Shown piece after piece: positions 4,803 through 28,102 of a stretch of 64,000 nucleotides of DNA. The stretch comes from Candidatus Bathyarchaeota archaeon (lineage in GTDB: Archaea > Thermoproteota > Bathyarchaeia > 40CM-2-53-6 > RBG-13-38-9). The notes below the pieces were generated by a model, which did not search any database, was not told where the DNA came from, and saw only the letters and a program-made list of their open reading frames with translations. The DNA lies in NCBI GenBank assembly GCA_018396915.1, contig JAGTRD010000003.1, forward strand, positions 173-64,172, in the 5' to 3' direction. Every line of letters begins with the position of its first letter. Positions within the stretch are counted from its first letter, which is position 1. The position numbers and the translations under genes were made by a program.

Positions 4803-6917
4803 TTGAAGATGAGTGTGGATGAAGGCATGGATCCGCTTGACAACTTCTTCACACCCCGAAGTGTAGCCATCGTAGGTGCCTCATCGAAACCTGGAAAGAT
4901 AGGCCACGAGATTGTAAGAAACATTTCACAGTATGATTATAAGGGTCGGGTATACCCTGTGAACCCGACTGCTGAGTCGATACTCGGGCTGAAATGTTAC
5001 AGGACCATAAGTGATGTTGAAGATTCGGTGGACCTTGCGGTTTTTGTAGCGGCTTCAAACATCTTACCAGAACTTGTTGAGGAGGCTTGCAGGAAGGGCG
5101 TGAGAAACGCGATTATAGTCTCAGGTGGCTTCAAGGAGATGGGTGGCGAGGGGGTAAAGTATGAGGAGCAGATCGTCTCGACCGCCCGGAAATTCGGTAT
5201 GAGGATAATTGGTCCAAACTGTATAGGTGTCTTCGACAGCACAACAAGGCTGGACACGTTCTTCTATCCGCATGACCGAATGGTCAGGCCTCCACCTGGA
5301 GGAGTATCCTTCGTCACTCAGAGTGGCACCTTCGGCCTAACCTTCCTTGAATGGGCAACAAACTCGAGGATGGGTGTGAGGAGGCTCGTCAGCTTGGGTA
5401 ATAGATGTGACGTCAATGAGTTGGACATGCTCAGGTATCTTGGCCGCGATCCATTAACGAAGGTTATCGCCCTACACTTGGAGAGTCTAACTGATGGGAG
5501 GCAACTTGTGAAGGAGGCTAGGGAGGTCTCGTCTAGAAAGCATATAGTGACCTTGAAGACAGGTAGGGTGGAGGAGTCTAAGGCAGCCCTCAGCCACACA
5601 GGGGCGATTACTGGGTCTTACCAGGTTTGCATGTCGGTCTTGAAGGATTCAGGGATGATCCTCGTCGACTCTTTCGAGGAGCTCTTCGACGTGTCGAAGG
5701 CGCTGGAGAAGCAGCCTCCCGCTAAGGGCAGTAATGTTACGATTGTAACAAATGCGGCGGGTCCATCGGTAGCGGCAGCTGACCTATGTCACGAGTATGG
5801 CTTCAATATTGTTGAGTATTCTGAGGGGACCATGAAGAGGCTTCGTTCAACCCTTCCACCATACGCTGTGATAGGGGAGTATGTCGATCTGACAGGTAGT
5901 GCAACAAGTGAAGACTATCAAAAGACATTCGAGATTGTTCTTGAAGAACCTAACATAGACGCCGTAATCTGCTTTGTAGTATTTTTGAATCCCCCTATCA
6001 CACCTGAAGTCATCAAGATCATATCGAATGTACGAAATTTCGGGAAACCGATAGTTTGCTGGGCTACAGGGGGTGAATATTCCCAGAGGCTCATAGAGAG
6101 ACTTGAGGAGGCTGGTATTCCAGTATATCCGACGACTGAGAGAGTCATAAGATCTCTAAGGGGGCTCATAGAGGCTGGTTCTTTGAGAGTCTGGTCTGAA
6201 CCTGAACCTGTCCAAGCCGACAGAGAGAGGGTGGGCAGGATAATTTGCAAAGTCTTATCGGAGGGCCGCGACATGTTGACTGAGCAGGAGAGCAAGGATA
6301 TCCTCAGAGCCTACGGAATTAAGACGACTGTTGAGTATGTAGCGAAGTCTGCGGTTGAGGCTGGGGACCTCGCCTCAAAGATAGGTTTCCCCGTTGTAAT
6401 GAAGATTCTTTCACCAGATATAACGCATAAGTCTGATGTCGGCGGCGTATTGACCGATATTAGAAGTCCCCAGGAGGCGTCTGAGGCTTTCAATGTGATA
6501 GTTAAGAATGTTAGGAGGAGTAGGCCAGAAGCTAGGTTTGAGGGAGTTATAGTTGAGAATCAGCTGCCCAGAGGCGTAGAGGTTCTTGTAGGCGCAACAG
6601 TAGACAGAGACTTCGGTCCTGTCGTAGCCTTCGGCCTCGGAGGCATATTCGTCGAGGCCTTCAGGGACGTCTCTTACGGTTTGGCGCCCCTCTCAGAGAG
6701 TGACGCTTTGAGGGTTATCTCCAGAACAAACGTGGCCAAGCTGCTTTCGGGATTCAGAGGATTTGGACCTGCCGATTTGAAGGGTCTCTCAACCCTTCTG
6801 AGAAGGGTGTCTTACCTGGCTTATGAGCAGCCGATAGTTGAGATGGACCTCAACCCTGTAATCGTCACGTCGAGGGATTGTACTGTTGCAGATGCGAGGA
6901 TAAGGATAAAGGTTTGA
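4803..6917 (+). CDS. acetyl-CoA synthetase (ADP-forming), fused alpha-beta (acetate--CoA ligase, NDP-forming)
   Basis: 704 aa. CoA-binding/SCS-alpha-like N-half (SVAIVGASSKPGKIGHEI, IIGPNCIG) fused to an ATP-grasp C-half (VVMKILSPDITHKSDVGGV). TTG at 4803; the first ATG is at 4809. Confidence 0.9.
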   Translation: MKMSVDEGMDPLDNFFTPRSVAIVGASSKPGKIGHEIVRNISQYDYKGRVYPVNPTAESILGLKCYRTISDVEDSVDLAVFVAASNILPELVEEACRKGVRNAIIVSGGFKEMGGEGVKYEEQIVSTARKFGMRIIGPNCIGVFDSTTRLDTFFYPHDRMVRPPPGGVSFVTQSGTFGLTFLEWATNSRMGVRRLVSLGNRCDVNELDMLRYLGRDPLTKVIALHLESLTDGRQLVKEAREVSSRKHIVTLKTGRVEESKAALSHTGAITGSYQVCMSVLKDSGMILVDSFEELFDVSKALEKQPPAKGSNVTIVTNAAGPSVAAADLCHEYGFNIVEYSEGTMKRLRSTLPPYAVIGEYVDLTGSATSEDYQKTFEIVLEEPNIDAVICFVVFLNPPITPEVIKIISNVRNFGKPIVCWATGGEYSQRLIERLEEAGIPVYPTTERVIRSLRGLIEAGSLRVWSEPEPVQADRERVGRIICKVLSEGRDMLTEQESKDILRAYGIKTTVEYVAKSAVEAGDLASKIGFPVVMKILSPDITHKSDVGGVLTDIRSPQEASEAFNVIVKNVRRSRPEARFEGVIVENQLPRGVEVLVGATVDRDFGPVVAFGLGGIFVEAFRDVSYGLAPLSESDALRVISRTNVAKLLSGFRGFGPADLKGLSTLLRRVSYLAYEQPIVEMDLNPVIVTSRDCTVADARIRIKV

Positions 6918-8860: not shown

Positions 8861-9613
8861 TCAATGAATCGTCCAGCCACCATCCACGGGGAGGACAGCT
8901 CCGGTGATGATGCCGGCCTCATCGCTTACGAGGAAGGAGACGGCGGCTGCAACCTCATCTTGGGTTGCCAGACGCTTCAGGGGGATATTGTCCATTACGA
9001 AATTTCTGAACTCTGGGTCGGCCAGCATCTTCTCTGTGAATGGTGTCTCTACGAATGTTGGTGCGACAGCATTCACCCTTATATTGTATCTTGCCCATTC
9101 ATAGGCGAGTACACGGGTAACCTGATCTACTCCACCTTTACTCGCGCAGTAGGCTGCCCTGTAAGGTAGGGCTACTTTACCTGCTTGGGATGAGATGTTC
9201 ACTATAACACCCTTCCTTCTGGGTATCATGGACTGTACTCCCACCGCTTGACAGCAGAAGAATAGGCCTTTGAGGTTTGTGTCGACGATGGTGTCCCAGG
9301 CTTCGACCGTAACTTCTTCAGCCCTCTGTGGAATGTTGACTCCTGCACTGTTTACTAATATGTCTATCTCACCGAATTCTCGGCGGGTTCTCCTCACGGC
9401 TTCCTGAATCTCATTGGTCTTATTCACATCGACGGAGTACCATTTACATCTTCGACCCAACCTGAGAATCTCCTCCCCTGTCTGGGCGAGTTTACTCTCT
9501 GTACGCCCCCAAAGGATAAGGTCGGCGCCATCTCTTGCTAGTCTTATGGCTGAGGCTCTTCCGAGGCCGCTCCCCGCCCCTGTCACTAAAGCTATCTTTC
9601 CAGATAGCACCAT
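8861..9613 (-). CDS. short-chain dehydrogenase/reductase (FabG-like)
   Basis: 250 aa. Motifs: ALVTGAGSGLGRA, NSAG, catalytic YCASK. Confidence 0.9.
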   Translation of the reverse strand: MVLSGKIALVTGAGSGLGRASAIRLARDGADLILWGRTESKLAQTGEEILRLGRRCKWYSVDVNKTNEIQEAVRRTRREFGEIDILVNSAGVNIPQRAEEVTVEAWDTIVDTNLKGLFFCCQAVGVQSMIPRRKGVIVNISSQAGKVALPYRAAYCASKGGVDQVTRVLAYEWARYNIRVNAVAPTFVETPFTEKMLADPEFRNFVMDNIPLKRLATQDEVAAAVSFLVSDEAGIITGAVLPVDGGWTIH

Positions 9614-11215: not shown

Positions 11216-12370
11216 ATGATTATGGAAAAAGTTGGAATAGTATCCTTCGGCCATACAAAATACGGAACCCTCAAAGATGATACCTCAAGTCTTATAGGTA
11301 GTGTGGTTGAGGAGTGCCTGAACAGAGTCGAGAAGGGAATCGAGCCGAAGGAAATAGGTCTCGTAATAACCAGTTGCGCCGACGACCAATTCTCAAATCA
11401 ACACCAGACAGGAGCCCTGGCGTTGAGATACTTGAAGAATCTGGACGCAGAAGCCTTCAGGGTTGAAGCGGCCTGCTCAAGCGGGAGCCTTGCAGTATAT
11501 TTGGCTAGAAAGATGTTGAACGCAGGCTACTTCGACAACATTTTGGTAGTAGGATTTGAGAAGATGAGTAGACTCTCAACAGAGGTCGCTACCTCAGTCT
11601 TGATAAGGGGAGGGTCACCTGAGGAGAATAGGATTGGGGTAACCCAGCCTGCCGCCTACGCCATGATGGCCCAGCTATATATGGAAAAGTATGGTGCGAC
11701 TGAGGACGACTACGCAAAAGTCTCAGTCAAAAACCATAATAATGCATTGAGAAATCCATGGGCCCAATTCCATAAGAAGATCAGTGTTGAAGACGTTAAG
11801 AGTTCGAGGTTGATAGCCTCACCGATAAGGCTCTTCCACTGCAGCCCAATAAGTGACGGCGCCGCCGCCCTACTCTTAAGCAGAAGGCCTAGAGACTACA
11901 CGGATACACCTGTATATATTAAGGGTATGGCGTTGGCCAACGATACTCTAGGAGTCTTCGAGCGGGATGACCCAACATCTGTGGCGGCGACTAGGAAGGC
12001 GGCAGCCAAAGCCTTCAAGGAAGCCAATATGGAAGTCAAAGACATAGACTTCGCTGAGGTCCACGACGCATTCACCCCAGTAGAACTTATGATCTATGAG
12101 GACTTGGGATTCGCAAGGAAGGGTGAAGGTTACAGGCTGATAAGGGACGGGACCGTCGAGTTTGACGGTGCATTGCCTGTCAATGTGAGTGGAGGATTGA
12201 AAGGGAAAGGCCATCCGATAGGGGCTACTGGTGTTGGGATGATGGTTGAGATCTTCCTGCAACTTCGGGGTGAGGCTGACCAGAGGCAACTTCCAGATGT
12301 TGAGATTGGTCTGGCTGAGAATCATGGAGGGACGGGGGCAACATCCGTAGTGACCATTCTGGGGAGATGA
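11216..12370 (+). CDS. archaeal thiolase-like protein (acetyl-CoA C-acetyltransferase family)
   Basis: 384 aa. Nucleophile Cys context VEAACSSGS; C-terminal NVSGGLKGKGHPIGATG and ENHGGTGA. Confidence 0.9.
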   Translation: MIMEKVGIVSFGHTKYGTLKDDTSSLIGSVVEECLNRVEKGIEPKEIGLVITSCADDQFSNQHQTGALALRYLKNLDAEAFRVEAACSSGSLAVYLARKMLNAGYFDNILVVGFEKMSRLSTEVATSVLIRGGSPEENRIGVTQPAAYAMMAQLYMEKYGATEDDYAKVSVKNHNNALRNPWAQFHKKISVEDVKSSRLIASPIRLFHCSPISDGAAALLLSRRPRDYTDTPVYIKGMALANDTLGVFERDDPTSVAATRKAAAKAFKEANMEVKDIDFAEVHDAFTPVELMIYEDLGFARKGEGYRLIRDGTVEFDGALPVNVSGGLKGKGHPIGATGVGMMVEIFLQLRGEADQRQLPDVEIGLAENHGGTGATSVVTILGR

Positions 12371-12373
12371 TGA

Positions 12374-13327
12374 ATGGCTAAGCTACTTGCATACTCTCTA
12401 GTATCGATCGTCCCCCCACCATTCAAGACTGAGTATATCGTTGGGATCGCTGAGGATGACGGTGTTAGGACGCCTGTCAGAATCGATCGTTTACATCTTA
12501 AGAACTTGAAGATCGGGATGTCAGGGACGGTAACAACAAGAGAGACCGATCAAGGTGAGATCAAATACTTCACCCCCGAAGGGGTTAAGGTAGAGAGTGG
12601 GAAGGTTGCCTTGGTGACAGGGGCTGCTAGAGGGATAGGTAGGGCTATAGCAATTGAACTTGCTGGGAGAGGCTACGACATAGTTTTGAATGATGTTGAA
12701 ACCTCAACTGATGGTGATGGGGCTATCAAGGAGATACAGTCTCTGGGTAGGAGGGCCTTATTCGCAGTTGGCGACGTATCAAGTTACAGCGATGTTCAGA
12801 AGATGGTCGACATGATTGTTAAGAAGTTTGGGAGGATAGATGTGCTGGTGAATAATGCTGGAATAAACATAGACAGGTTGGTGACCAACATGTCACCCCA
12901 GGAATGGCAGAAGGTTATAGATGTGAATCTGACAGGTGTCTTCAACTGTACGAAAGCAGTTCTCCCACATATGATCTCGGCTGGAGGTGGCAGGATCATC
13001 AACATAAGCTCCCAAGGAGCCTTAGATGGGCCTGTAGGTCAAGCCAACTACGCAGCTGCGAAGGGTGGCGTCATATCCTTCACAAAGGTCATTGCCAGAG
13101 AATACGCTCAGTACAACATACTCTGTAATGCAGTCGCACCTGGATGCATCCGAACAAGAATGACTGACTCAATTCCTCCAGGCCAACTACGTGAGAGGGT
13201 ATCTAAGATACCTCTCGGCAGGAGAGGTGAGCCTGGTGAGGTTGCAAAACTAGTTGCATTCTTGGCAGAGGATGGAACATACATAACCGGGCAACTGATC
13301 CTGATAAATGCGGGGGAATACATCTAG
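12374..13327 (+). CDS. fusion protein: DUF35-type OB-fold (no zinc ribbon) + 3-oxoacyl reductase-like SDR
   Basis: 317 aa. Residues 1-70 (LLAYSLVSIVPPPFKTEYIVGIAEDDGVRTPVRIDRLHLKNLKIGMSGTV) look like the OB half of DUF35. The rest is an SDR (VTGAARGIGRAIA, NNAG, YAAAKGG). It starts 3 nt after the thiolase stop. Confidence 0.85.
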   Translation: MAKLLAYSLVSIVPPPFKTEYIVGIAEDDGVRTPVRIDRLHLKNLKIGMSGTVTTRETDQGEIKYFTPEGVKVESGKVALVTGAARGIGRAIAIELAGRGYDIVLNDVETSTDGDGAIKEIQSLGRRALFAVGDVSSYSDVQKMVDMIVKKFGRIDVLVNNAGINIDRLVTNMSPQEWQKVIDVNLTGVFNCTKAVLPHMISAGGGRIINISSQGALDGPVGQANYAAAKGGVISFTKVIAREYAQYNILCNAVAPGCIRTRMTDSIPPGQLRERVSKIPLGRRGEPGEVAKLVAFLAEDGTYITGQLILINAGEYI

Positions 13328-13599: not shown

Positions 13600-14133
13600 T
13601 CATCTTGAGGTGTGGCATAGCACCCCACCTATCAGAACCATGATTCCTGGAAGCCAATTCATAGTAACCATCATTATTATACCGGCTACGATGGCTACTG
13701 TGCCGCCTGTCTTCAAGCCTCCACGCCTGACTTTACTGTATGAGTATATTGCGACAACTCCCAGAACGAGTGAGATTAAGGCTCCAACCATCATGAATCC
13801 AATGATCCATCCTCCAATTGCAGTGGGCATCATCCATCTATCCCACATCATATGGCTCCCCATCAACCTTGAGAAGCCTCCTATCCACAGTTGCATCAGG
13901 AGCAGAGGTATGATGGCGAAGACTATTGCCAATATTCCGCCAGCCAGTATCAATACACCTCCTACACCCGAATAGTCGTGGCCCTCAGATTTTGGGAAGC
14001 ATCCAACCTTCAAGCCGCATCTAGGACATTGCAGAGCTCCATCAGGAATCTCAGCCCCGCACTTCATACAGTAGACCAATCTAAGGCACCTGAACAAAGT
14101 AAGATAACGAGAGGCACTATTATTTCTTTCCAT
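13600..14133 (-). CDS. zinc-ribbon membrane protein
   Basis: 177 aa. N-terminal CMKCGAEIPDGALQCPRCG followed by four hydrophobic helices. Confidence 0.6.
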   Translation of the reverse strand: MERNNSASRYLTLFRCLRLVYCMKCGAEIPDGALQCPRCGLKVGCFPKSEGHDYSGVGGVLILAGGILAIVFAIIPLLLMQLWIGGFSRLMGSHMMWDRWMMPTAIGGWIIGFMMVGALISLVLGVVAIYSYSKVRRGGLKTGGTVAIVAGIIMMVTMNWLPGIMVLIGGVLCHTSR

Positions 14134-14621: not shown

Positions 14622-15563
14622 CTATCTCTGCTCTAGGTATCTTTGAAAGTCCTTTATCATCTCGTCCAGATCATATGTTGTTCTCCAATCCCACTCATTC
14701 CTTGCTGGGCTGTCGTCTATGTAGCTGAAGCCTTTCCCCATCATCTTCACAACTTCAGGATCAGGTTTGAATGTTATCTTTGCTGAAGGAATATGTTTCC
14801 TAACTGTCTCAGCGAACTCTCCGGCTGTGAGGGTTATTCCTGCTAAGGTGTAGACCCTAGTCTTTATTCTCTGGCTTGGAGCGTCATGTAACATTAGGAG
14901 GGCTTTCGCCGCATCCTTGTAATATATGCATGGAACCATTGTATCCTCCTCAACCCATACTTCGAAAGGCTTATTCTGGATTGAGTATTCGATCATCCAA
15001 GCCAGGTACTGGGTCATATGCTTGGTCTTTGCTCCTGGGCCTATGACTGTGGGATATCTGACTGCCCTAAAGTCGAGGTTGAACTTCTTATGATAGAATC
15101 TTCCGAGTAGCTCACAGAAGAGTTTGGTGACTCCATACATGTTCTCAGGCCTCTGAACCGTGGTCTCATCTATCCTCAGAGGGGTCTCAGCCTCTCTAGC
15201 ATATGTTGCTATGGTGCTGGTGAAAATAATCCTATCAACATCGAAGAGTCTAGCGGCCTCCAATACATGCATCGTTCCATTGGCGTTGACCCTGTACGCA
15301 GCCCAAGGGTTTGCGTCTGAAGGGAGGCTGAGCATCCCCCCAAGATGATATATGCTCTTAACTTTGAATTCTTTGACTGTGTTGAAGACTTCAGACCAAT
15401 TCGCCAAATCACCCCTAACAATCTTCACCTTACCGGTAATAGGCTTGACAGATGTCATGTCTGGAGCCACATCAAATAGGACAGGTTCATCTCCCCTCTC
15501 GACAAGCATCCTTGCAAGTTCGGAGCCTATCAGGCCTGTCCCACCGGTTATCAGGATCGACAT
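14622..15563 (-). CDS. NAD-dependent epimerase/dehydratase family protein (extended SDR)
   Basis: 313 aa. N-terminal ILITGGTGLIGSELA; length and layout match an extended SDR. Confidence 0.85.
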   Translation of the reverse strand: MSILITGGTGLIGSELARMLVERGDEPVLFDVAPDMTSVKPITGKVKIVRGDLANWSEVFNTVKEFKVKSIYHLGGMLSLPSDANPWAAYRVNANGTMHVLEAARLFDVDRIIFTSTIATYAREAETPLRIDETTVQRPENMYGVTKLFCELLGRFYHKKFNLDFRAVRYPTVIGPGAKTKHMTQYLAWMIEYSIQNKPFEVWVEEDTMVPCIYYKDAAKALLMLHDAPSQRIKTRVYTLAGITLTAGEFAETVRKHIPSAKITFKPDPEVVKMMGKGFSYIDDSPARNEWDWRTTYDLDEMIKDFQRYLEQR

Positions 15564-16914: not shown

Positions 16915-17853
16915 ATGGGTCTTGGAACTGTTGCATGTGTAGGGGCTGGGTTGATAGGGCACAGTTGGGCCACGCTCTTCTCGTGGAAGGGATACAAGGT
17001 TAAACTATACGATTTGGATGGGAAAATCCTAGACTCAGCTGTTAAGAGAATAAAAAGTAATCTTGAATTCATGGCTGAGAGGGGGCTCATAAAACCTGAA
17101 TTATGTAGAGAATCCTTGGGGAGAATCAAGGTTGCTCGAGATCTTGAGGAGGCTATAGATGGGGCTGAGTATATACAAGAGTCTGTCTATGAAAGTTATA
17201 ATGTTAAGAAGAAAGTTTTTAAGGAGATGGATAAGGCTGCGCCTGCCGATGCGATTCTAGCCAGCAGCACCTCAACCTTGAGGATGACTATCATACAGAA
17301 GGCGACTGAGAGGCCTGGCAGGTGTATTGTCGCTCATCCGTGGAATCCACCCCACCTCATGCCCCTAGTAGAGATCATACCTGGAAGACAGACTGAACCT
17401 GAAACAGTCGAGGCTACAAGAACCTTGATGTCCAAGCTGGGTAAGGTTACTGTCGTCCAGAGGAGGGAGGTTCCTGGAACTATAGGGAACCGTTTAGCTG
17501 CCGCTTTATGGAGGGAGGCGATAGACCTGGTGTACAGGGGTGTCGCTGACCTCGAGGATGTTGATAGGGCTGTATCGGCAGGTCCAGGTTTGAGGTGGGC
17601 TATATTGGGGCCGCATCTAAGCTACCATCTCGGAGGTGGGAGTGGTGGGATAGAGTATTACCTTAAACATTTGGGTCCAGCAATGGCCTCCAGATGGAGG
17701 ACATTGGCCAAGTGGACGGAGATCCCTCCGAAAGCTGAGAGGAAGATAATTCAGGGCATAAAGGGTATGAAGCTGCTGCGGGAGAGGGGGGTTGAGGAGG
17801 TTGCTAGGTGGAGGGATGAGAAGCTGATAGAACTCCTGAAGATCCTGTATTGA
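16915..17853 (+). CDS. 3-hydroxyacyl-CoA dehydrogenase family protein (lambda-crystallin/L-gulonate 3-DH-like)
   Basis: 312 aa. Rossmann motif VACVGAGLIGHSWA plus the C-terminal helical domain of the family. Confidence 0.85.
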   Translation: MGLGTVACVGAGLIGHSWATLFSWKGYKVKLYDLDGKILDSAVKRIKSNLEFMAERGLIKPELCRESLGRIKVARDLEEAIDGAEYIQESVYESYNVKKKVFKEMDKAAPADAILASSTSTLRMTIIQKATERPGRCIVAHPWNPPHLMPLVEIIPGRQTEPETVEATRTLMSKLGKVTVVQRREVPGTIGNRLAAALWREAIDLVYRGVADLEDVDRAVSAGPGLRWAILGPHLSYHLGGGSGGIEYYLKHLGPAMASRWRTLAKWTEIPPKAERKIIQGIKGMKLLRERGVEEVARWRDEKLIELLKILY

Positions 17854-25790: not shown

Positions 25791-26831
25791 TCAGCCAAGT
25801 CTGATAACTACCTTAATAGATTCATAATGATCAGGATTAGCCGCCACCGTAAAAGCCCTCTCAGCCTCATCCATACCGAATTCATGGGTTATAACCGGTT
25901 TCACAGAACCGTCAGCTAAACTCTTCAAAGCGAGCCTCACAGAATCCAGTGGACCCAGCCTGGCATTCTTTATAGTCAAACCTTTATCAATCATCTCCCT
26001 AAATGGATGCTCTATAATAAGACTCTCACCGTAAATGCTCACAATAACCACTGTGCCCATTCTTCTGGAGGCCTCGATAACCCTATTGAATGCAGGCGCG
26101 TAACCTGTGCATTCAAAGGCTACATCCACACCGGCGCCTTCAGTCTCCTCCTTTATCAGAGTCACAGGATCTTCTTTTCGAGGATTGAATGTTCTGTATG
26201 CCCCAAGCCTCTCAGCCATCCTCAACCTATAATCTGCAATATCCACAACGAATATTCGATTTGAGCCCATAACCTTGGCATACTGCATCACATACAAGCC
26301 TATAGGTCCAGCACCCCATACCAGCACCGTATTCCCACCGTCAACCTGACCCAGATACTTAACAGCATTCACAGCAACACTCAAAGGTTCTGTCTGAGAG
26401 GCCACCTTCGCATTCAAACCTTCAGGAACATTGAAGAGTAGACTGGTGGGGAAAGCCAGCCTCTGGGAGAAGGCGCCTTGAACCTCAAACCCTACTCTTT
26501 TCCTATTGTAGCACTGGTCTTCACGGCCTACAGTGCAGCTTGGACATGGAGGATATATAGCCTGGCCGTGGCAGCCCAGAGTGCATCCGGCGCTGACAAG
26601 CCTACCGTCATAGATCCCTGACCATTCATGACCCAAAACAACTGGATTATCAGGCGAAGGATCGATACCAGGATATTTCTTCCCGTGGAACCCACATATT
26701 GCTATGTCTGAGCCACATATGCTTCCATATAGTGGTTCAACGATTTCTTCGTGAGCAGCCGCTTTCGGCTCAGATATCTCCCCCACAACTATAGTCTCTG
26801 GGCCTTTACATATTATAGCCTTCAATCGCAC
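25791..26831 (-). CDS. zinc-dependent medium-chain alcohol/polyol dehydrogenase
   Basis: 346 aa. Motifs: GSICGSDIAI, VLGHEWSG, a structural-Zn Cys cluster (CPSCTVGREDQC), and Rossmann VWGAGPIGL. Confidence 0.88.
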   Translation of the reverse strand: MRLKAIICKGPETIVVGEISEPKAAAHEEIVEPLYGSICGSDIAICGFHGKKYPGIDPSPDNPVVLGHEWSGIYDGRLVSAGCTLGCHGQAIYPPCPSCTVGREDQCYNRKRVGFEVQGAFSQRLAFPTSLLFNVPEGLNAKVASQTEPLSVAVNAVKYLGQVDGGNTVLVWGAGPIGLYVMQYAKVMGSNRIFVVDIADYRLRMAERLGAYRTFNPRKEDPVTLIKEETEGAGVDVAFECTGYAPAFNRVIEASRRMGTVVIVSIYGESLIIEHPFREMIDKGLTIKNARLGPLDSVRLALKSLADGSVKPVITHEFGMDEAERAFTVAANPDHYESIKVVIRLG

Positions 26832-26941
26832 ACTACCCTTTTTGAAGCAAGAATAGGCTGAGTCAGCATATATTTTTATTCCACGCCTTATGTCCTTGCA
26901 AATTGAACCTTAGATTATATCAGCTGAGATGTGAATCAAAT

Positions 26942-28102
26942 ATGAATATTCATATAGTAAACACTTTCTATCCACCTTGGAGGGGTGGCGCCGAGACATA
27001 CACTAGAAATCTCGCTGTGAACCTTCAAATGATGGGACATAGAGTCTCAGTCACAGCTGCCCATCCTCCCCTGAAGCCCGGAGATTATGTGCAGGAAGGT
27101 GTGGCGGTGAGAAGGTTAAGGTCGATCGGGATGTTCTATGGAGTTCCAATAGTTCCTGAACTTCCTAGACACTTGATGGGGGTCGAAACTGATATCATCC
27201 ACGTAAATTTTCCAAACCCATACACAGCCTCTTCGGGAGCATTCATGTCAAAACTCAGGAAGATGCCTGCAGTCTTGACTTGGCATAACGATCTTCCGCC
27301 AGTAACCAAGCTAGCTGGGATACTTGTTAAGATGCATGACAACATGTTTTCAAGCCATTACCTGAACATTTACGATGCCATCATAACAACTTCCAACGTT
27401 TATTTTGAAGGTTCGAAGATCTTGAAGAAGTATTGGAGGAAGGTTAGGGTTGTTGAGAATGGTGTCGACTGTGAAAGGTTCAAGCCTGGAGTTGAAGTTG
27501 GAGACTTGAAGATGCGCCTCGGTCTCACAAAGTCTAAGGTAGCTCTATTTGTGGGAGCCTTAACTAAGTGGCATAGGTATAAGGGTCTAGAAGATCTTTT
27601 GGCTGCTCTTAAGATCCTGAATAGGGAGGATGTGAAATTGATTGTTGTGGGTGATGGAGATCTTAGATCTGAATATCAAAATATGTCTGAGCGGCTAGGA
27701 TTATCTGGCAGAGTACTTTTTGTTGGGAATTTACCTGATAACGTCCTACCGAGATACTACGCAGCCTCAGATTTCCTTGTTCTACCCAGCAGGGACAGGT
27801 CTGAAGGTTTCGGTCTTACAATCCTTGAGGCTAATGCCTCTGGAATACCTGCGGTAGCCTCAAATATTGGCGGGATACCTGGAATATTGACTGATAGAGT
27901 TAATGGTTTGCTCGTTCAGCCGAGAGACCCTCAAGCGTTGGCTGACGCTTTACAGGTTATCGTTGAGGATGATGATTTAAGGGTCAGGATGGGTTTGATG
28001 GGTAGGAAGATAGCGCTATCACATGACTGGAGCAGGGTTGCCTTTGAAACCTTTAAGGTTTACTGTGAAGTCCTCCAAAATAGAAGTTTAATGAAATCTT
28101 AA
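26942..28102 (+). CDS. GT4-family glycosyltransferase
   Basis: C-terminal EGFGLTILEANASGIPAVAS motif. ATG 26942 (MNIHIVNTFYPPW) is preferred to the upstream start in the track. Confidence 0.88.
   Translation: MNIHIVNTFYPPWRGGAETYTRNLAVNLQMMGHRVSVTAAHPPLKPGDYVQEGVAVRRLRSIGMFYGVPIVPELPRHLMGVETDIIHVNFPNPYTASSGAFMSKLRKMPAVLTWHNDLPPVTKLAGILVKMHDNMFSSHYLNIYDAIITTSNVYFEGSKILKKYWRKVRVVENGVDCERFKPGVEVGDLKMRLGLTKSKVALFVGALTKWHRYKGLEDLLAALKILNREDVKLIVVGDGDLRSEYQNMSERLGLSGRVLFVGNLPDNVLPRYYAASDFLVLPSRDRSEGFGLTILEANASGIPAVASNIGGIPGILTDRVNGLLVQPRDPQALADALQVIVEDDDLRVRMGLMGRKIALSHDWSRVAFETFKVYCEVLQNRSLMKS

Follow-up and report, generated by a model that had tools for sequence, protein, structure and literature searches.

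A zinc-free DUF35-type OB domain fused to a FabG-like reductase and predicted to tether it to an archaeal thiolase

Thiolase condensation is thermodynamically uphill, and a gene pair from an uncultivated archaeon raises the question of whether a reductase can be hard-wired to its thiolase through a small docking domain and, if so, for which metabolism. The pair lies in a 64,000-nucleotide stretch of DNA from Candidatus Bathyarchaeota archaeon (assembly GCA_018396915.1, contig JAGTRD010000003.1, positions 173 to 64,172 of the forward strand), hereafter called the window, which falls within contig C23 of a 1.63-Mb genome that is 96.3% complete. It consists of a thiolase gene (product P0001) followed by a gene whose product (P0002) joins a DUF35-type oligonucleotide/oligosaccharide-binding (OB) domain to a short-chain dehydrogenase/reductase (SDR), and the nearest protein relatives of both carry the label Candidatus Bathyarchaeia. 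The reading proposed here, to which a probability of about 0.7 is given, is that the OB module hard-wires the reductase to the thiolase, that acetoacetyl-CoA is channelled between them, and that the pair forms an NAD-linked C4 module of fermentative or energy metabolism which carries out no iterative fatty-acid elongation.

The first step concerns the genes themselves. The thiolase is encoded at positions 11216-12370 (+; 384 residues) and P0002 at 12374-13327 (+; 317 residues). Both open reading frames, as well as the 3-nt gap between them reported in the initial annotation, could be confirmed from the sequence. The thiolase stop codon TGA (12368-12370) is followed by a further in-frame TGA (12371-12373) immediately 5' of the ATG at 12374, and the start of P0002 can therefore not lie further upstream. 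A Shine-Dalgarno-like motif, GGGGAG, is read at 12361-12366 (+), within the end of the thiolase gene and 7 nt 5' of this ATG. The two genes form one two-gene operon and would be translationally coupled. This pair is a stand-alone unit, with a divergent malic-enzyme gene upstream and, downstream, a convergent gene whose product is a zinc-ribbon membrane protein.

P0001 matches the Pfam families Thiolase_N and Thiolase_C_1, as well as PRK06064 of NCBIfam, the latter with 404 bits for a cut-off of 420. Its fold, its Cys87, its HDxF motif (His283-Asp284-Ala285-Phe286) and its catalytic His333 point to a thiolase of the archaeal SCP-x type, which is DUF35-dependent, and these residues are invariant among 31 thiolase relatives. 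Its relatives in the PDB are 7yvy_A, 4yzo_A and 6esq_A (E 2e-65), and 6esq_A is a DUF35-binding thiolase.

What, then, is the N-terminal part of P0002? The initial annotation had likened its first 70 residues or so to the OB half of DUF35 proteins, an identification that was borne out by profiles, hhalign and fold matches. The domain spans residues 1-68 (12374-12577, +), with predicted elements b1 (2-12), b2 (19-28), b3 (31-37), a helix (39-44), b4 (50-58) and b5 (61-68). It is strongly conserved, the N-terminal part being 62-75% identical in nine orthologues. A profile of these nine close orthologues (A2) retrieved no DUF35 protein from the PDB and reached only 46% in hhalign, and a broader alignment was therefore needed. 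The resulting profile of 35 diverse members (A3) retrieved solely DUF35 proteins when run with hmmsearch against the PDB (6esq_E at E 3.5e-7, 6ok1_B at E 1.3e-3 and 7pxp_A at E 0.4). Compared by hhalign with the canonical DUF35 protein of the same genome, it scored 94% (E 1.4e-7) and aligned to the OB half of that protein, residues 66-126. Run genome by genome, A3 also picked up canonical DUF35 reading frames of 130-160 residues in 175 of 401 Thermoproteota genomes. In addition, 16 of the 35 members show sub-threshold matches to PF01796, the best at E 1.4e-4 and several in the same register.

The fold models lead to the same family. AlphaFold (AF2) gave a predicted local distance difference test (pLDDT) score of 86.6 for full-length P0002 and 88.8 for the OB domain alone, and the b1-b2-b3-helix-b4-b5 topology is that of an OB fold. 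The best Foldseek matches to this model are the DUF35 chains of 6ESQ and 6OK1 (template modelling score 0.66-0.70, E 8e-3). A second structural alignment, against representatives, is led by 6htj_B (Z 8.2), 6ok1_D (Z 8.2, root-mean-square deviation 2.3 over 67 residues, the closest structural match) and 6esq_E (Z 7.4). PhlB, MucC, Shy and BbsA come next at Z 6.1-6.7, a range shared with generic OB folds (Z 5-7). Homology to PF01796 is thus found at the profile and fold levels, and the domain can be described as an OB fold of the DUF35 type from which the zinc ribbon and the N-terminal helices have been lost.

The lack of the ribbon, also seen in the initial annotation, is clear-cut: residues 1-76 contain no Cys, so that the CxxC...CxxC ribbon is absent, and b1 begins at residue 2, which leaves no space for one. 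A zinc ribbon usually precedes the OB fold in DUF35 proteins, and all 17 canonical comparators carry two CxxC motifs. A ribbon supplied in trans was considered and rejected, the sole above-cut-off zf-ChsH2 match of the genome lying in the canonical DUF35 protein of contig C10.

The OB domain is followed by a linker (residues 69-76; 12578-12601, +), where pLDDT falls below 50 at residues 72-74 of the full-length model and where the columns of alignments A1 and A3 are variable. The remainder, residues 77-317 and the stop codon (12602-13327, +), is a complete classical SDR resembling FabG and acetoacetyl-CoA reductases, in agreement with the initial annotation; the Pfam family adh_short covers residues 77-268 (E 2.6e-64) and FabG structures of the PDB match at E ~1e-60. 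The glycine motif TGxxxGxG (G83, G87, G89) and the tetrad N185-S213-Y226-K230 are intact, and both are kept in 14 of 16 fusions. By residue content the enzyme is predicted to be catalytically intact, and it would act as a 3-ketoacyl-CoA reductase/(3R)-hydroxyacyl-CoA dehydrogenase. P0002 stays below the curated cut-offs of TIGR01830 (268 versus 297.75 bits), TIGR01829 (231 versus 302) and NF004198 (260 versus 296), and NF009466 of NCBIfam is the only subfamily whose cut-off is passed (233 bits for 222).

The cofactor matters for the metabolic role. Asp107 ends the second strand of the SDR ("IVLNDVE"), at a site that discriminates between cofactors, and is aligned with the Asp of "VVVNDLG" in 2ET6, an NAD-dependent (3R)-hydroxyacyl-CoA dehydrogenase; the FabG structure 2UVD has a Tyr at this position. 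An equivalent Asp is found in 12 of the 14 active fusions, the two fusions that lack it being located within sugar-modification clusters. Its place at the end of this strand predicts, with some uncertainty, the use of NAD(H), and the P0002 reductase would be NAD(H)-linked. 2ET6 was rejected as the closest solved SDR: its top rank in the PDB is an artefact, because it has two tandem domains, and single-domain FabGs score higher over the same stretch (110 bits against 64-66 bits for each 2ET6 domain).

How widespread is this architecture? When 1.8 billion representatives were searched exhaustively with a profile, 40 matches came up, of which about 33 are credible, and none of them is a canonical zinc-ribbon DUF35 protein. 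Four forms of this mini-OB family can be distinguished. The first is the fusion to an SDR (about 320 residues), found in Bathyarchaeia, Fervidicoccaceae, Hadarchaeota, MSBL1 and others. In the second (about 360 residues; P0027 and P0034, from metagenome contigs), the mini-OB is joined to a non-homologous dehydrogenase of the 3HCDH type. The third carries an SDR devoid of the catalytic Tyr and Lys (P0035 and P0036), and the fourth comprises free mini-OB proteins of 70-90 residues. A word-index census of longer architectures counted at least 26 SDR fusions; it says little on other fusion partners. Within the phylum the fusion is rare: the survey called for in the initial annotation found it in 3 of 400 other Thermoproteota genomes sampled, and in none of four genomes of the same order. 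The frameshift artefact that had been envisaged can be set aside, because the 317-325-residue OB-SDR architecture recurs in many independent assemblies.

Some members deserve a description of their own. The OB-3HCDH genes of P0027 and P0034 start 5-6 nt 3' of a thiolase gene, one copy being located inside a glycosyltransferase/DegT/methyltransferase cluster. In P0035 (L006:81-1046 and L007:80-1045) and P0036, the SDR has lost its glycine motif, with Tyr replaced by Leu or Ala, Lys by Glu and Asn by Arg; these proteins are probably non-catalytic scaffolds that retain the thiolase tag. In the MSBL1 archaeon GCA_001549225.1 (L030:5091-6107), the deposited SDR starts at 5367 (246 residues) in a frame that is open from 5091. 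A start near 5148 gives a complete OB-SDR fusion, and the annotation has therefore cut off the N-terminal domain.

The link with thiolase is a constant feature of the family. In all 13 relatives with enough flanking sequence (L002-L005, L009-L011, L028-L031 and two further loci), the mini-OB gene lies 0-24 nt 3' of a thiolase gene or overlaps it. The trees also set the family apart. One branch (support of 98.9 in the Shimodaira-Hasegawa-like approximate likelihood ratio test, SH-aLRT) separates 35 mini-OBs from 17 canonical OB halves, and 10 of the 12 thiolases paired with mini-OBs fall in one clade (SH-aLRT 99), away from those paired with canonical DUF35 proteins; the OB alignment underlying these trees is short and the sample was partly gathered by similarity to the query. 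The mevalonate-type thiolase of the same genome groups outside the mini-OB thiolase clade.

Could the OB domain dock on the thiolase? The complex prediction proposed in the initial annotation, run three times with two thiolase copies and the OB domain, gave a score of 0.86, while none of three controls exceeded 0.02. Of 80 solved complexes, 58 reach the mark used for such models, as do 2 of 110 mismatched pairs; these counts are only rough here because both the alignments, which were our own, and the 2:1 set-up differ from those of the calibration. The runs share at least 95% of their contacts, with a partner pLDDT of at least 84. The modelled contacts involve OB residues 5-15, 21-25 and 32-36, on strands b1-b3, and thiolase residues 123-157, 198-204 and 246-253. 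The predicted OB interface residues are somewhat more conserved than those elsewhere (entropy 1.77 versus 2.14, p 0.04). This pass may be a matter of memory, because thiolase/DUF35 complexes have already been solved (6ET9, 6OK1, 7PXP), and the score of the model is a sign of likeness to DUF35 complexes, not of binding. The claim of the initial annotation that the fusion tethers the ketoreductase step to the thiolase is supported by the strict synteny and fits the complex model, and the OB domain probably clamps the reductase to the thiolase.

OB folds frequently mediate oligomerisation, and the domain might instead act within the reductase, in acyl-CoA binding or oligomerisation, the linkage with the thiolase reflecting only a shared pathway. 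The SSO2064 paper of 2010, in which DUF35 was proposed as a non-covalent acyl-CoA-delivery domain (PMC2954200), would favour this alternative, as would the lack of a co-variation signal at the predicted thiolase/OB interface. However, every solved DUF35 protein matched here belongs to a complex with a thiolase-fold enzyme (6ESQ/6ET9, 6OK1, 7PXP, 5M3K, 9MYR, 9VBO), free mini-OBs without any enzyme domain are still encoded directly 3' of a thiolase, and the thiolase/OB model passed its controls. A role confined to the reductase looks thus very unlikely.

In the tethering mechanism, the OB module would use b1-b3 to dock on a thiolase surface made up of residues ~123-157, 198-204 and 246-253, and the 8-residue linker would then keep the reductase active site beside the thiolase. 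Acetoacetyl-CoA would be handed on directly. Reduction would pull the unfavourable Claisen condensation or, in the opposite direction, thiolysis would pull an unfavourable oxidation. The module would thus be reversible (2 acetyl-CoA <-> acetoacetyl-CoA <-> (R)-3-hydroxybutyryl-CoA), and would either use 3-hydroxybutyrate or form it as an electron sink; its direction and stereochemistry are inferred.

The C4 assignment draws on the operons of relatives. A family-I CoA-transferase gene lies 3' of the thiolase/OB-reductase pair in Hadarchaeota, in MSBL1 and on a metagenome contig of 300 kb, which hold the closest relatives of the thiolase, and in one relative locus a free mini-OB gene is followed by the genes for CoA-transferase subunits. 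This argues for a C4 (3-hydroxybutyrate/acetoacetyl-CoA) module rather than for chain elongation. The window itself offers a fermentation block as neighbourhood, with Fe-ADH, ADP-forming acyl-CoA synthetase, AOR, SDR and malic-enzyme genes.

The initial annotation had pointed to a different route, proposed for archaea, in which thiolase, SDR, dehydratase and medium-chain dehydrogenase/reductase (MDR) build fatty acids independently of acyl carrier protein (ACP). The pair would then be the condensing and reducing core of such an archaeal synthase, working by reverse beta-oxidation with a dehydratase and an MDR enoyl-CoA reductase encoded elsewhere. There is a precedent in Sulfolobus acidocaldarius, where a complex of ketothiolase/DUF35, SDR-type reductase (ACR) and MaoC-type dehydratase (MaoC-HCD), together with an MDR-type reductase (ECR), yields C4-C10 acyl-CoAs (bioRxiv 10.1101/2024.07.05.601840). 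Candidate partners are also present: an MDR gene (ADH_zinc_N) at 25791-26831, one crotonase and one acyl-CoA dehydrogenase. However, no MaoC dehydratase (PF01575), the (R)-specific enzyme on which the S. acidocaldarius pathway depends, was found in the 96.3%-complete genome, control genomes being matched, and the crotonase belongs to the (S)-hydroxyacyl-CoA class, whereas FabG-like SDRs, from what is known of the family, give the (R)-isomer. Asp107 predicts NAD(H), whereas the S. acidocaldarius reductase Saci_1104 is strictly NADPH-dependent (bioRxiv 10.1101/2024.07.05.601840). The crotonase, the acyl-CoA dehydrogenase and a CoA-transferase A/B pair, each present once, are all encoded outside this contig and away from any lipid cluster; the crotonase, acyl-CoA dehydrogenase and MDR genes are dispersed rather than clustered, and the candidate partners are spread over four contigs. 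Finally, the operons of relatives add a CoA-transferase, not a dehydratase or an enoyl reductase. A fatty-acid synthase is therefore unlikely, and this part of the initial annotation found no support as stated. Synthesis of polyhydroxyalkanoate (PHA) was also considered and rejected as the role of the pair, no class III PHA synthase being found in the genome.

Another possible outlet for the product is the cell surface. The pair could supply 3-hydroxybutyryl-CoA as acyl donor for the N-acylation of amino sugars in surface glycans, since three distant relatives have their thiolase/OB-reductase pair within gene clusters for sugar modification. In L005 (1147-8356) it is surrounded by DegT aminotransferases, CTP_transf_3, an epimerase and GFO; in L004 (2871-5571), NeuB and PIG-L are present and a GNAT acyltransferase gene lies directly downstream; glycosyltransferases and methyltransferases accompany the OB-3HCDH locus. 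The gene content of L004 and L005, which resemble amino-sugar or nonulosonic-acid clusters, suggests a supply of 3-hydroxybutyryl groups for glycan N-acylation there. The window also has a gene for an NAD-dependent epimerase/dehydratase (14622-15563) and a glycosyltransferase family 4 (GT4) gene (26903-28102). These glycan-context relatives have, however, long-branch thiolases outside the P0001 clade and SDRs without Asp107, and the pair in the window stands alone, with no aminotransferase or acyltransferase adjacent. For the bathyarchaeal pair, such a role is highly improbable.

Several points weigh against the tethered, NAD-linked C4 module. Residues 1-80 of P0002 alone have no match in Pfam or NCBIfam, and every PF01796 match of the relatives is below the gathering score; the domain searches suggested in the initial annotation thus gave the adh_short border and no Pfam match for the N-terminal part. 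The fold-match scores (Foldseek E 8e-3, Z ~8) only modestly exceed those of generic OB folds. The DUF35 proteins of the solved complexes have a zinc ribbon, unlike the OB half of P0002, and the predicted interface shows no excess of the thiolase positions that set the mini-OB clade apart (3 of 33, p 0.6). The synteny counts are not independent, some loci having been gathered by similarity to P0001. An Arg in the glycine motif is frequent in NADPH-using SDRs, and Arg86 sits in that of P0002, which makes the cofactor call uncertain. Lastly, no CoA-transferase gene adjoins the pair in the window, the genome's copies being on another contig.

Comparison with known systems helps to place the pair. 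One of the closest known systems is that of S. acidocaldarius, made up of the ketothiolase Saci_1121, the DUF35 protein Saci_1120, the SDR Saci_1104 and the MaoC dehydratase Saci_1085 (Schmerling et al.), in which the thiolase/DUF35 unit binds both the SDR ketoacyl-CoA reductase and the dehydratase (bioRxiv 10.1101/2024.07.05.601840). In both archaea, a DUF35-type OB module is encoded directly downstream of an archaeal SCP-x-type thiolase. The FabG-like SDR of S. acidocaldarius is physically associated with the thiolase and proposed to pull the Claisen condensation; here the association is predicted. Unlike in S. acidocaldarius, the DUF35 module, devoid of zinc ribbon and N-terminal helices, forms one polypeptide with the reductase, no MaoC was found, the SDR has an NAD-type Asp, and the likely range is C4 rather than C4-C10.

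The thiolase/3-hydroxy-3-methylglutaryl-CoA (HMG-CoA) synthase/DUF35 complex of Methanothermococcus thermolithotrophicus (6ESQ/6ET9) provides the best PDB sequence match for the OB domain (6esq_E) and, among DUF35-binding thiolases, for P0001 (6esq_A). Both systems would have in common that acetoacetyl-CoA is channelled to the enzyme that follows. In M. thermolithotrophicus, a free 130-residue DUF35 protein, zinc ribbon included, forms a bridge between two enzymes of the thiolase fold, whereas here the partner is an SDR and is fused, and the thiolases fall in separate clades. The genome studied here also has a canonical copy of the M. thermolithotrophicus type, on contig C10 (L001).

Steroid side-chain aldolases offer a third comparison. 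In ChsH1-ChsH2(DUF35)-Ltp2 and Shy(DUF35)-Sal (6OK1, 9MYR), an enzyme of the beta-oxidation type is fused to DUF35 and docked on a thiolase-fold partner. These complexes are bacterial; in them DUF35 retains its zinc ribbon, lies C-terminally in a fusion with a MaoC hydratase and has a retro-aldolase as partner. P0002, by contrast, is an archaeal protein in which a zinc-free OB domain forms the N-terminal part of a dehydrogenase fusion whose partner is a true thiolase.

The haloarchaeal beta-ketothiolases PhaA and BktB combine an alpha catalytic subunit with a beta OB-fold subunit, work with a separate PhaB and serve PHA synthesis. They resemble the present pair in that a thiolase needing a small OB-fold subunit is followed by an SDR acetoacetyl-CoA reductase giving (R)-3-hydroxybutyryl-CoA. 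In haloarchaea, the subunits and the reductase are separate and dedicated to PHA, whereas no PHA synthase was found here.

The other genes of the window provide context only. A stand-alone 3-hydroxyacyl-CoA dehydrogenase of the 3HCDH type, an S-specific class (Pfam 3HCDH_N/3HCDH), is encoded at 16915-17853 (+), where the initial annotation had placed it, in a separate transcription unit. The several MDR enzymes that were said to be nearby reduce to the single MDR gene found, 12 kb off, on the opposite strand and unlinked to the pair. An untagged FabG-like SDR of 250 residues is encoded on the opposite strand at 8861-9613 (-), 1.6 kb 5' of the thiolase gene and flanked by the genes for AOR and malic enzyme. 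The convergent downstream gene (13600-14133, -) encodes a 177-residue protein, whose N-terminal zinc ribbon precedes Gly/Met-rich membrane helices. As a convergent polytopic membrane protein, it was ruled out as the "missing" ribbon of P0002. A gene for a 183-residue zinc-ribbon protein also adjoins the thiolase gene in the relative L028 (3315-3866), and this neighbourhood may be conserved between the two loci. On contig C12 (L034:5797-8418), the sole family-I CoA-transferase subunit pair of the genome is directly followed by a gene for a DUF362 protein.

Part of this picture was already in place. That DUF35 docks other enzymes on a thiolase, so as to channel the product, is a known principle. 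According to one sentence published in 2010, fusions of DUF35 homologues to Rossmann-fold domains can occur, and the same paper describes the ribbon-plus-OB architecture as conserved in all DUF35 homologues (PMC2954200). In the library searched, no paper describes a zinc-free DUF35 clade or a zinc-free DUF35-reductase fusion, the sentence of 2010 being the only related statement. The 3HCDH and dead-SDR fusions, the separate thiolase and OB clades, the glycan-cluster contexts and the genome evidence against a fatty-acid synthase are added here.

A broader proposal, which is tentative and may well turn out otherwise, can be made for the whole family. The zinc-free mini-DUF35 might be a portable thiolase-docking tag: the OB half would suffice for docking, the ribbon serving only to recruit a second, non-covalent partner, and the tag would have been joined repeatedly to consumers of 3-ketoacyl-CoA (SDR, 3HCDH, dead SDR), giving self-assembling modules for glycan acylation or fermentation.

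The natural fusion has the value of a Rosetta stone for the contact between thiolase, DUF35 and reductase, for which the biochemical evidence comes from Sulfolobus. Its layout suggests that, within DUF35, thiolase binding is the task of the OB half and that the reductase is positioned at the OB C-terminus. It also provides a minimal tag of 68 residues that could serve in building channelled acetoacetyl-CoA pathways. The fusion further corrects public annotation, since the mini-OB fusion proteins are labelled FabG or SDR in public records and filed as "3-oxoacyl-ACP reductase FabG", although their hosts are without ACP-dependent fatty-acid synthesis. How archaea drive thiolase condensation is a key issue in discussions of archaeal fatty-acid and mevalonate metabolism, and the present genome argues against taking every thiolase/DUF35/SDR set for a fatty-acid synthase.

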